DNA from: an uncultured Chloroflexia bacterium
GTDB taxonomy: Bacteria > Chloroflexota > Anaerolineae > JAAYZQ01
NCBI GenBank assembly: GCA_963700285.1
Contig: CAVOXA010000014.1
Coordinates: forward strand, 576,001-640,000
Reading direction: 5' to 3'
DNA length: 64,000 nt
The notes below the pieces were generated by a model. It saw only the letters and a program-made list of their open reading frames with translations. It was not told where the DNA came from and ran no database searches. Shown here piece by piece: positions 33,756-40,767 of this stretch. Position 1 is the stretch's first letter. Every line of letters begins with the position of its first letter. A program made the position numbers and the translations under genes.

Positions 33756-33797
33756 CAAAGATCAGAGGACAGGTTGCAGGGTCCAGGGCACAGGGTG
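33756..33797 (-). repeat. Six degenerate heptamers (NNNYYTG) after DGR target B stop
   Basis: CACCCTG TGCCCTG GACCCTG CAACCTG TCCTCTG ATCTTTG. Confidence 0.75.
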
Positions 33798-33798
33798 C

Positions 33799-33925
33799 CT
33801 ATTTGAGGGGACCCCTGGCGACGCGAAACCCGTCGTGCCGTTCCTGTAGGCCGGGACGTACGTCGCCACGGTACGCGCACCGCACGGAGCCGGGATTGTC
33901 TGCGCCACGAACCCCCGCGCAGAAC
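33799..33925 (-). repeat. DGR variable repeat VR-B
   Basis: TAC AGG AAC GGC -AC GAC GGG TTT CGC GTC GCC AG versus TR AAC AGG AAC AAC AAC AAC GGG TTT CGC GTC GCC AG; differences only at TR adenines. Confidence 0.88.
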
Positions 33926-36033
33926 GCGCGGCTCACGTCCCTTCCAGATTCTCCCGGCCGTCGTCAGCCCGATAGGGATAGTCCCGGTACTGGCTGCTGC
34001 ACCACTCCCAGACGTTGCCGGCCATGTCGGCCGCGCCGTAGGGGCTGTCGCCGGCGGGCGAGTACTGGCCCACCGGCGTCGTCCGGCCCGGGCCGGCCGG
34101 CTGGCAGTTGGCCCGCGCCGGGTCCCAGTCGTTGCCCCAGGGCCACAGGCGGCCGTCGTCGCCGCGGGCCGCCTTCTCCCACTCGGCCTCGGTGGGCAGG
34201 CGGTAGGCCTGCCCGGTCCGCTCCGCGCAGCCAGGTCGACGTAGGCCAGGGCGTCGTCCCAGGTGACGTACACCACCGGGTGGTCGGCCAGCTCCTCGGG
34301 CAGGCGGCCGTCGCGCCAGTGGCTGGGGCGCGGCGTGGCCGGTGGCCTCGACAAAGGCGGCGTACTCGGCGTTGGTCACCGGGTAGCGGCCGATCTCAAA
34401 GGCGGGCAGCGTGACCTCGTGCTGGGGCTGCTCCTCGCTCGAACCAGCCCTTGTCCTGGAACTCTTTCGCCCACTCGTAGCGGTCCAGCATGGCCTGGAC
34501 CTGCTCGTCGCCGGTGCCCATCAGGAAGGGCCCGGCCGGGACGGGGACCATCTCCGGCTCGAAGCGCTGGCGGGCGGCCTGCACGGCCGGCGCTTCGACG
34601 GGCGTGGCCCGGCGGGCCAGGGTGATGTAGCTGCGCAGCTCCAGGGGCGTGAGCGGCTCGAAACGGGCATCCTCCTCGCCGCAGAGCAGGAGCAGCCGCC
34701 GCAGCGCCTCCCGGCCCTGGAAGGGTTCCAGGGCTTCCGCCAGGCGGGGCAGTTCGGTCTCCGGCGCCCTCCCGCCCGCGCCGTCTCCTGCGCCGCGGAA
34801 AAAGCCCTCCAGGTCGCGCAGGTAGCCGGGGCGCAGGCGCAGCAGGTTGTAGAGGTCGGGGTGGGCGTGCTGGATGGCCACCATCTTGGCCAGGCGCACC
34901 GGCCGGATCGTGTCTCGGAGCGCCTCCCGCTTCTCCACCAGCCGGGTCAGGAGCAGATAGATGTTCAGCGTGCGCTTGACCTGGCGCGGGTTGGGGGTCA
35001 GGCCCTGGGCGAAGACCTCGTCGCAGCGGGGATCGGGCAGGGCGGGGGCCAGCGACTTGACGTAGCTCGCGCATCGGCTCGTCCTCGATGGGCGGCAGGA
35101 TGAAGGGCAGCTGGATGATCTTTTCCAGGTACTCGCGGGGCTTGACCTCGCCCTGGTAGCGGGTGCGCACCGCGTCCTCGATGGCCTCCGGGTCCAGCCC
35201 CAGGACATAGATGCAGCCCTCCACGTCCAGGAAGAGCTTGAGGGCCTCCAGCACCTGGATGGCCTTGTCCGGCAGGCAGCGGTCCAGGTCGTCGACAAAG
35301 ACCACCAGCCGGCGGAAGCCGCCCCCGGGCCGGCGCAGCAGGACCCGGACCAGCCGGGCGAAATTGTCCTGGAACTGCTCCAGGGAGCGGAGCTGGGCCT
35401 GGTAGTGGAGCAGGTCCTCGCGGCGAAAGGCCTCGATCAGCTTGCCCATCTGGCTCACCGGCTCGCCCTTGCCCAGCGCCTTCCGCGCCCCTTCCAGGGC
35501 TTCCGCAGGCAGCCCCAGCCCCACGCCGGAGAGGATCAGGTTGAAGGCCAGGCCGGCGCCGGAGGTCAGCGCCTGCGTCCAGTTGGGCTTCCAGTCGCCC
35601 TTTTCCGTCCAGGCTGCTTCGCGGTAGAGGGCCTCGCGCAGCCGGCCCAGCAGTTCCTCCGCCGTCGGCTCGCCCTCGACCGGCGGCGGGCGGATCCGCC
35701 TCCAGCAATTGCTCCAGGTCATCCAGCAGGGCCAGCAGCAGGGCGCGCCACAGGGCGTCCTCCTGGTTGTACTTCCAGGCGTTGAACCAGACCGTGCGGT
35801 GGCGCAGCGTGGCCGTCGCCTCTTGCGCTGCCGGCCACTCTGGCGCGGAGCATCTCCATCAGGCTGGTCTTGCCCGCGCCCCAACTGCCGAACACGCCCA
35901 GGGTCAGCGGGGTGCCGGTGTGCGGATCCAGCAAGATGTCGGCCAGGGCCTCCACGTAGGGCTGAAAGTCCAGGGCGTCCCTGCCGGTCGGCAGGTCGGC
36001 CAGGACGGGCGAGTTAGTCTGTTCTGCGGTCAT
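33799..36033 (-). CDS. DGR target B: KAP-family P-loop NTPase fused to a C-terminal FGE-sulfatase/CLec domain (multiple frameshifts)
   Basis: GVFGSWGAGKTS, VWFNAWKY, FVDDLDRC, YLEKIIQ and NPRQVKR (KAP); [37 protein letters not shown] and RVLRGGSW..GFRVA (FGE); GGAGG RBS. Confidence 0.85.
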
Positions 36034-39900: not shown

Positions 39901-40582
39901 TCTCGGCCAGGGTTGACCTGCGCGTCTCGCGCGTAATCAGTACCGGTACCCCATTCACTGTTTTGCCGTGACAGGAAAAGTGGACCCACAGGAGATCGTC
40001 CGGCCCGGCAACCTGGCAGAGCCGGGCCAGCTCACCCTCCACATTGTCGCGGGTGGGCTGCAGGTGTTCCTCGGCCGCGGCGTCGTGCAGGGCAACGGTG
40101 GTGTAGCCCCGGGCCTGGAGCGCAGCCTCCATGGCCACGACGTCGTTGACACAGAACCGGAGATCAGGAATGGCAGGATCGATGAAATGGTTCACGCCCA
40201 CCAAAAGCGCCCAGCGGGCGCGGATGGGCCCGGCCGGAGTATCAGGCTTTGGCCAAGGAACAGGAGACAGCCGCCGGCCGCCAGGCGGATTTTGCTCCTC
40301 CTGCCCGGTACGGCTGTACAGCGCTGGCTCGAAGCGGGCGTACTGGAGGGGGTTCGCCTCCTTGACATCGGCAAGGAGATCGTCCCAAAGGAGCCGGGTA
40401 CGGCAGTAGTCTATGACCTCGTCGACCATGTCGTCCAGGCCGTGGCCAGGGCCGAATCTAACTACAATGGGTTGGAAGAGTAGACGGTCCTGACAAAACC
40501 GGCGCAGGTCCTGAGGGGTAAAGGCCGCTAGCAATAGCTCTCGGATGGCGCCAACATTGTAGGATGCAGTCTGGTCAGTCAT
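36790..40582 (-). CDS. DGR target A: EAD-like domain + caspase-like peptidase (C14) + NACHT/STAND NTPase + FGE/CLec domain (many frameshifts between 36.9 and 39.1 kb)
   Basis: [22 protein letters not shown] (EAD7-like, inferred); [20 protein letters not shown] (His/Cys dyad); [10 protein letters not shown] and LLLDALDEV (NACHT); [27 protein letters not shown] and VLRGGAW..GFRVA (FGE); GGGAGG RBS. Confidence 0.85.
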
Positions 40583-40738
40583 GGGGCCTCCCACATGCTA
40601 TGACTTTGCGGAGACGATGGGTCTCAACAGCGCCCAGGCTATCGAGTAGAATCGGAATACCACGGGCACCATCGCCACCCCGGTCGTGCCTCTGGCCGGC
40701 GAGAGCCGCGAGGTTTCTCTTTTCGTCAGGCACCCGGA

Positions 40739-40767
40739 ATTATATCATCGCTGATGGGAAAAAGCAA
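40739..40767 (-). promoter_or_regulatory. sigma70-type promoter for the DGR island
   Basis: TTGCTT, 17 nt spacer, TATAAT with extended -10 TG on the minus strand. Confidence 0.7.

Follow-up and report, generated by a model that had tools for sequence, protein, structure and literature searches.

We analyzed a window of 64,000 nt (C14:576001-640000) from the genome of an uncultured Chloroflexia bacterium (7.05 Mb in 22 contigs, 89% complete), in which a cassette on the minus strand carries the remains of a diversity-generating retroelement (DGR) together with two genes for nucleoside triphosphatases (NTPases) that end in lectin-like domains. In a DGR, a reverse transcriptase (RT) and the protein Avd make cDNA from the RNA of a template repeat (TR), a process that is error-prone at adenines, and this cDNA takes the place of a variable repeat (VR) in a target gene. 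In the reading that we hold to be probable, one template rewrote the lectin tips of a caspase-NACHT protein and of a KAP protein, both likely intracellular sensors of invaders, and a likely real deletion of 1.1 kb then froze them. The tips are predicted to be frozen because the deletion left the locus unable to mutate. A first-pass annotation of this DNA had described the system as hypermutating, in the present tense; that description is not supported, since RT, avd and TR are largely missing and no template in trans was found in the genome.

Template remnant, variable repeats and truncated reverse transcriptase

The locus is a genuine DGR. A 37-nt remnant of the TR 3' part abuts the RT stub, and the caspase-NACHT gene (target A) and the KAP gene (target B) end in repeats VR-A and VR-B, respectively (Table 1). 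Mismatches to the remnant fell at adenines alone both in VR-A (Fisher p=7e-4) and in VR-B (p=2e-3, with one 1-nt gap), and after pooling 11/25 adenine sites and 0/48 other sites were mismatched (p=1.3e-6). The first-pass annotation had proposed that VR mismatches are confined to TR adenines and that a single template serves two targets, and had named a spread of mismatches over all four bases as grounds for abandoning the idea; the counts bear out both proposals, and no such spread was seen in the window. Between the two VRs, variation lies at positions 1 and 2 of NNC codons, with CGT, CCG and AGG constant; VR-B has one base extra and one base missing relative to VR-A, and the 3' ends are identical at 39 of 41 nt through the stop. 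These patterns had been described before and were the same on recomputation. The TR diverges from the VRs past the 37-nt overlap, and as expected of a DGR both targets are genes of the C-type lectin (CLec)/formylglycine-generating enzyme (FGE) fold with a 3' VR end that resembles an initiation-of-mutagenic-homing (IMH) segment and is distinct from the TR end.

The annotation's assignment of the RT fragment to the DGR type was likewise upheld. The best PDB match of the 104-residue fragment was 8UB7 (E=1e-21), with the next-best RT at E=2e-4, and the intact RT of relative L050 matched 8UB7 at E=9e-55, its top-scoring group II intron RT being at 2e-19. We take 8UB7 to be the RT of the Bordetella phage BPP-1 DGR; the PDB listing states only 'Reverse transcriptase', 328 aa. 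In a quick RT tree of 41 rows, with gut-metagenome RTs as the outer group, the window fragment fell inside a 16-row clade (Shimodaira-Hasegawa-like approximate likelihood ratio test, SH-aLRT, 99) in which every named member belongs to the Chloroflexota; the group II-type RT of the source genome (L001) dropped out of this tree. The closest named relatives of the window RT are Chloroflexota and include Anaerolineales, Caldilineaceae and Chloroflexia records; homologues suggest the class Anaerolineae for the source genome. We rejected a group II intron or retron RT, the placement that the annotation had said would undo it, because 8UB7 is far closer and no credible Rfam intron or retron match was found in four loci.

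Codon 117 of the RT is fused directly to the middle of the TR (junction 36318-36321). Measured against each of four intact relatives, the missing length is 1,105 nt and comprises the catalytic part of the RT, all of avd and the 5' part of the TR. Because a working DGR has a catalytic RT, avd and a full TR, and about 1,105 nt of these are gone, we class the locus from its sequence as a degenerate DGR that, as assembled, is unable to mutate. Integration of a mutagenized cDNA is disfavored as the origin of the deletion: the remnant keeps all 13 adenines, none of them changed relative to the intact locus L067.

The source genome holds three DGR RTs but one avd and one full TR. An intact single-target DGR lies at C10:223,700-228,900 (L115, L002), with a NACHT-HEAT-FGE target, a full-length RT (377-codon open frame), avd and TR; in the tree, its RT is sister to an RT of congener G001. 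The C10 TR differs from its own VR at 11/22 adenines and 1/60 other sites. We rejected it as a template in trans for the window because it has 10 non-adenine mismatches to each window VR, and since it is the sole full TR, no fitting template was found in the 89% complete genome.

In a DGR model system, according to the parts of the work drawn on here (PMC6182149), TR RNA is copied with errors and the copy replaces the VR; the spacer primes this synthesis, which begins close to the TR 3' end. The spacer RNA of the window is conserved, and RNAalifold (12 sequences, run without a shuffle control) predicted 57 pairs, 21 of them with two-sided changes; Rfam searches of the spacer and loci gave four matches at E 0.1-0.8, all under the gathering score and none convincing. 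Directly past the stop of each target lies a pyrimidine-rich array with CTG every 7 nt (36707-36790 and 33750-33799). YCTG units numbered 3-8 at 20/20 VR ends examined, and strict 7-nt CTG arrays occur seven times genome-wide, two of them in this cassette, with control periods giving 0-4. The array is a possible target-recognition element; no description of 7-nt arrays past DGR VRs was found in the literature searched, in which subscription papers were thinly covered. A G/C hairpin follows VR-A and not VR-B, and a regular expression for it matched at 9/20 VR ends examined.

Table 1. Features of the cassette and its island, in window positions.
Feature	Position	Strand	Basis
Island limits	33709..41135		Congener G001: flanks 92-94% identical, 298 unrelated nt replacing 7.4 kb
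Target B 3' end: IMH-like segment, stop 33799, 7-nt CTG array, without G/C hairpin	33750..33814	-	Sequence
Target B: KAP-family NTPase fused to FGE/C-type lectin domain	33799..36033	-	64-77% identical to intact relatives
VR-B	33815..33888	-	5/12 adenine vs 0/24 non-adenine mismatches to TR remnant
Spacer RNA 3' of TR, conserved, predicted structured	36050..36281	-	RNAalifold, 12 sequences
TR 3' remnant, 37 nt, abutting RT stub	36282..36318	-	Alignment to VRs and relatives
DGR RT, codons 1-117 only, one frameshift near 36628	36319..36668	-	90% identical to intact L067 RT
Target A 3' end: IMH-like segment, stop 36790, 7-nt periodic CTG array, G/C hairpin 36707-36722	36707..36805	-	Role inferred from known DGR target-recognition elements
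Target A: NACHT NTPase, helical region, FGE/C-type lectin domain	36790..39424	-	68% identical to intact L050 target
VR-A	36806..36879	-	6/13 adenine vs 0/24 non-adenine mismatches to TR remnant
Target A: caspase-like peptidase C14	39600..40215	-	Pfam Peptidase_C14 57.8 bits; PADLOC caspase 71.6 bits
Target A: EAD7-like adaptor domain, N-terminus, ATG at 40582	40331..40582	-	Pfam EAD7 23.1 bits, under cut-off 32

Targets, intact relatives and proposed role

Both target gene bodies lie within 33799-40582 on the minus strand. Target A (40582-36790) reads in the order EAD7-like domain, caspase, NACHT and FGE. A Pfam scan on 24 pieces of the window placed FGE-sulfatase above the cut-off in both targets and KAP_NTPase at 74.3 and 36.7 bits in target B; with the Peptidase_C14 match these scores substantiate the caspase, KAP and FGE modules of the first-pass annotation. 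Its NACHT and EAD modules fared differently. NACHT reached 24.6 bits on a frameshifted piece, under the cut-off of 26.7, and is secured by the intact homologue P0032 (44.2 bits), while EAD7 stayed sub-threshold in the window and again in P0032 (27.8 bits). Target A keeps caspase motifs at 39965-39982 (His) and 39818-39835 (Cys), which we take to be the catalytic dyad typical of the family. We likewise presume the usual Walker roles for the motifs of the target A NACHT (Walker A 39095-39118, Walker B 38794-38817) and of target B (Walker A 35863-35889, Walker B 35279-35305).

No 19-residue hydropathy window exceeded 1.72 in five KAP and three NACHT proteins, whereas a NACHT target that has a membrane-like segment and served as control reached 2.52, so the targets are probably cytoplasmic, as the annotation had supposed. 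Formylglycine-generating enzymes carry a cysteine-pair active-site motif after an RGG motif. We rejected a catalytic enzyme of this kind because the cysteine-pair motif is replaced by the variable segment in both window domains and in eight aligned relatives. An AlphaFold model of a relative's FGE domain was not used (mean predicted local distance difference test score 52, below 50 in the VR part).

The N-terminal head of the NACHT protein varies between loci, from caspase in the window to helix-turn-helix (HTH; L053), metallophosphoesterase (L051), EAD7-like alone (P0032) and caspase plus phosphoesterase (P0014). We also compared the window with contigs of related strains (X1-X4; 7-12% of words), which are unsuited to VR allele frequencies and of which the matches listed were considered; the exact TR/VR-end pattern occurred in 0 stretches of metagenome contigs. 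In X3 and X4 the match to the window ends at 39424, just ahead of the NACHT region, a boundary that appears to mark a swap point for N-terminal effector heads.

At 21 loci the RT shares at least 72% identity with the L050 RT. A KAP gene is visible at 10 of these, a NACHT gene at 7 and both kinds at 3 (L049, L050, L107), on contigs many of which are too short to show both sides of the RT. The NACHT plus KAP layout is intact in the Chloroflexota loci L050 and L049. Locus L050 has the complete order NACHT-FGE, RT (353 aa), avd (matching bAvd at 57 bits), TR and KAP-FGE. In 13 VR/TR pairs taken from 10 loci that are intact, 138/272 adenines and 18/659 other sites were mismatched, 9 of the 18 coming from one indel-bearing pair. 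By arithmetic, a template with some 20 adenines could yield as many as about 10^12 DNA variants of each tip. Locus L107 (1816-2790) has the NACHT plus KAP layout with an RT stub of 31 codons, its machinery replaced by repeats and a short open reading frame that resembles the GxxExxY family. A Fic-family gene lies behind the KAP-FGE target of L071 (4421-5614), and an antitoxin/PIN-like pair, recognized by eye, lies behind the TR of L101 (1576-2234).

By its sequence the window locus belongs, as a degenerate member, to the DGR-linked NTPase-FGE systems, whose architecture, KAP variant and likening to adaptive immune receptors are already published in the parts of Kaur et al. 2021 (PMC8195603) and Doré et al. 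2024 (PMC10907252) drawn on here. In Kaur et al. 2021, STAND-FGS proteins bear an EAD7, caspase or calcineurin head, KAP can stand in for STAND, the genes are linked to DGRs, one genome may hold several types of NTPase, and an analogy is drawn to adaptive immune receptors; EAD background is given by Kaur et al. 2020 (PMC7159879). The window locus resembles the systems of Kaur et al. 2021 in its STAND (NACHT) or KAP NTPases with a C-terminal FGS/FGE lectin domain, its N-terminal EAD7/caspase heads, its linked RT and four-helix accessory gene, and an N-terminal effector or EAD that varies between relatives. The source genome, too, has at least two NTPase-FGE genes, namely the window pair and NACHT-FGE genes at C10:223.7k and C10:1334.7k. 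The window locus differs from those systems in carrying the EAD7-like domain and the caspase on one chain and in having lost most of RT, avd and TR; moreover, whereas a second EAD copy on a separate effector is typical in that account, the source genome gave one match only, itself below the cut-off.

In the account of clade 5D, cellular DGRs of multicellular bacteria, by Doré et al. (PMC10907252) there are two targets, NACHT or nSTAND1 and some KAP, the basal members are Chloroflexi, and some loci are degenerate. The window locus has two single-CLec targets with NACHT and KAP, and its nearest named RT relatives are Chloroflexota like those basal members; by analogy the window RT likely belongs to clade 5D. 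The degenerate loci of that study are linked to transposons and arrays of miniature inverted-repeat transposable elements, in contrast to the clean RT-to-TR join of the window.

The KAP domains of relatives match the PADLOC profiles QatA and PifA (QatA at E about 1e-38 to 1e-43 for two intact relatives), with which they share the P-loop domain. Unlike QatA and PifA, the window KAP is fused to a DGR-diversified lectin domain, and no Qat or Pif partner genes were seen in the island. With the BPP-1 DGR (8UB7), the window system shares the RT family, Avd, adenine-specific TR/VR differences, a structured spacer 3' of the TR and a CLec target. The window system is, however, cellular, has the order target-RT-avd-TR-target with two large NTPase targets instead of a tail fiber, and has its hairpin behind one of the two VRs only.

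By analogy with these systems, the target pair are likely anti-phage sensors. The variable tip would bind a phage or other foreign ligand and the NTPase would be switched on; NACHT oligomers would then cluster and activate the caspase, leading to cell death or dormancy, while the KAP protein, which has no effector of its own, would signal through a partner or a PifA-like route.

Competing readings and the integrity of the genes

Several observations weigh against two anti-invader sensors frozen by a deletion. Neither of two NACHT targets matched a PADLOC model at E<=1e-5. CLec-STAND proteins are stated to be experimentally uncharacterized in the text of Doré et al. 2024 (PMC10907252) drawn on here, and no experimental test of any NTPase-FGE DGR target was found in the same thinly covered literature. 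Protein and Pfam model searches of the 89% complete genome revealed no second EAD7 copy for partner recruitment, which speaks against a simple adaptor model. Given that completeness, a template in trans could be unassembled. The RT-TR junction is known from this assembly alone, and the 120 best of 257 short proteins included none with the same fusion from a second assembly. In X2 and X4, related-strain contigs run past 36318 into non-RT sequence, in X2 recognizably a full TR, and cells with an intact DGR may therefore exist alongside. The frameshift density of the cassette is about 5/kb versus the approximately 2/kb expected for its GC content, and because of this excess partial decay or strain mixing is possible. 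Finally, we counted four 1-nt indels in 3/5 VRs checked in the genome, where about 0.7 would be expected (post hoc p=0.006), a hint of mixed VR alleles under the consensus.

At window positions 33850-33870, in the C10 VR and in the first VR of a further DGR on contig C1 (see below), a variable codon has gained a base, giving one four-letter word common to all three; the shared word might arise from consensus over mixed alleles.

The DGR could still be active in the population if the assembled sequence represents a deletion variant carried by a minority, or a chimeric read, and other cells, their RT, avd and TR intact, go on diversifying the tips. The full TR on related contigs and the VR indels agree with this, as do the truncated RT P0168, which clusters with the full-length P0231, and the intact and deleted variants that Doré et al. 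(PMC10907252) found side by side. The template of X2 departs from the one implied by the window VRs, however, for which reason we assign the X2 contig to another strain, and no full-length RT more than 93% identical to the stub was present among 50 matches. The junction also lacks a repeat that would collapse in assembly, and because of this, and because similar joins recur elsewhere, we are fairly confident that the deletion of about 1.1 kb is real in at least part of the population. We regard continuing diversification as unlikely.

The diversified proteins might instead be signaling or self/non-self receptors, serving development, kin recognition, or nutrient or stress sensing. Relatives carry HTH or metallophosphoesterase heads in place of the caspase, the NACHT targets have no PADLOC match, and Doré et al. 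(PMC10907252) cite a signal-transduction reading of cyanobacterial targets. The caspase, the QatA/PifA-like KAP and the NACHT modules, the island location and the swapping of heads are, on the other hand, typical of conflict systems, and FGE-like domains are among the listed sensors of defense-associated STANDs in the portion of a 2026 preprint drawn on here (10.64898/2026.01.04.697583), which describes no test of such a sensor. We give this alternative little credence, much as we do continuing diversification.

We next consider whether the island as a whole is a decaying pseudogene cluster, its machinery deleted, both targets truly frameshifted and its function gone. Relative to L050, target A has 18 frameshifts (14 insertions, 4 deletions), target B has 9 (all insertions) and the RT has 1; a compensating indel pair inside VR-B comes on top of the nine, and other references gave 19-21 for target A and 6-9 for target B. 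These are at least 28 indels in 5.3 kb, and for frameshift density the 5-kb bin of the cassette ranks among the highest few percent of the genome's 1,399 bins. RT, avd and TR have been lost, and targets without machinery exist elsewhere in the genome. Against decay, eight frame-aware alignments contained no internal stop, the indels being mostly single-base insertions, and the catalytic and Walker motifs are all kept. Protein P0002, which comes from a second assembly and has a 99% identical head, stays in frame where the window sequence first shifts and changes frame at other sites, and related contigs have 1-nt gaps relative to the window at at least 8 places inside the two target genes. Frameshifts in the genome as a whole are strongly GC-dependent: a codon-model scan found about 0.55 per coding kb on large contigs, patchily distributed, and the rate was 0.2/kb where GC is 55% but about 2/kb where it is 72-75%, with the NACHT, FGE and KAP parts of the cassette at 68-76% GC. 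Several thousand frameshifts are predicted in the source genome altogether, and its gene calls are often split. Judged from these patterns, long-read consensus errors are the better reading of the roughly 28 frameshifts, and both sensor genes are thus probably intact in living cells. Wholesale decay is a still more doubtful proposition than the two alternatives above.

The suggestion that the TR/VR likeness is mere paralogy of two FGE genes beside a group II intron or retron RT fragment, to which 'retron-type' or 'group II intron' labels on several RT homologues in databases might lend color, is refuted by the adenine-only mismatches (p=1e-6), by an RT far nearer 8UB7 than any other solved RT, and by the avd and full TR behind the RT in relatives.

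Island setting and recurrent RT-to-TR joins

In sequence comparison the 7.4-kb segment is a variable island because congener G001 keeps both flanks around unrelated bases (Table 1). The cassette has a racemase gene and a glycyl-radical enzyme gene as neighbors (Pfam). Downstream lie the glycyl-radical enzyme (40773-43520) and a probable activating enzyme (47156-48100), and upstream a short Rho-like ATPase gene (30795-31937; Pfam ATP-synt_ab, Rho assignment by eye). Palindromic repeats resembling repetitive extragenic palindromes bracket the region at about 31,980-32,070 and 40,800-40,960, with further copies elsewhere in G001. The sole promoter-like site found sits on the opposite strand.

A second broken DGR of the source genome, at C1:1,724,900-1,729,200 (L003, L032), has two FGE targets that are apparently exported; its RT is fused near codon 290 to the TR 3' end via a shared 8-nt motif. 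FGE genes with VR-like ends and without RT, avd or TR nearby occur on C10 (near 1,333,500, 1,337,800, 1,263,450, 1,265,940, 1,496,350 and 1,150,560) and on C15 (near 143,460). They include a pair with near-identical 3' ends, one member of which is an intact NACHT-FGE gene, and are likely orphaned DGR targets.

DGR-type RTs were present in 102/401 genomes of the class. For a census of joins, we listed partial RT matches, re-searched 37 genomes with the RT N-terminus and inspected 37 loci, leaving out 12 that were merely frameshifted or lower-scoring, had a complete RT, were of another type, were gapped or lay at a contig end. In 6 of the 25 truncated-RT loci the join lies between about -38 and +9 nt from the TR anchor (the window, C1, L147, L157, L164 by extrapolation, and L151, inverted), two of these six in the source genome itself. 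Two other joins lie at avd, one within the RT and three at the spacer, and 13 are unassigned. The binomial p for 6 of 12 in-cassette joins at the TR was 7e-5 to 5e-3, but 0.07 to 0.46 when the two discovery loci were dropped and unassigned joins kept, in a census biased toward N-terminal stubs and toward TR ends, which are easier to recognize than spacer ends. In L151 (G228:C63) and L158 (G075:C18) the truncated RT is followed by inverted TR or spacer sequence. Among the 120 short RT proteins, P0132, P0168, P0187 and P0199, from four clusters, run from RT into a TR-encoded peptide, and the P0187 junction recurs in P0233 from a different source. Beyond the deletion variants of Doré et al., no description of RT-to-TR joins was found in the literature searched.

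Together these data suggest that DGRs have been shut off repeatedly by RT-to-TR deletions. Such deletions might even amount to a built-in off-switch, in which the TR, as a breakage or recombination hot spot, joins the RT to the TR 3' part, removes RT, avd and template at once, keeps the receptors and spacer, and locks a selected receptor as a heritable 'immune memory'; we offer this as a speculation that is more likely wrong than right by a wide margin. The locus touches the open question of whether hypermutated intracellular receptors provide bacteria with an adaptive-like immunity. Since systems of this type are already published and the present copy is damaged and full of errors, the window locus itself is a poor test object. 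It points, however, to a tight DGR lineage within the Chloroflexota, whose compact intact cassettes, L050 for example, would have one template feeding NACHT and KAP sensors and could be tested. If confirmed on unbiased data, RT-to-TR deletions would bring lock-in into the DGR life cycle as a further step.

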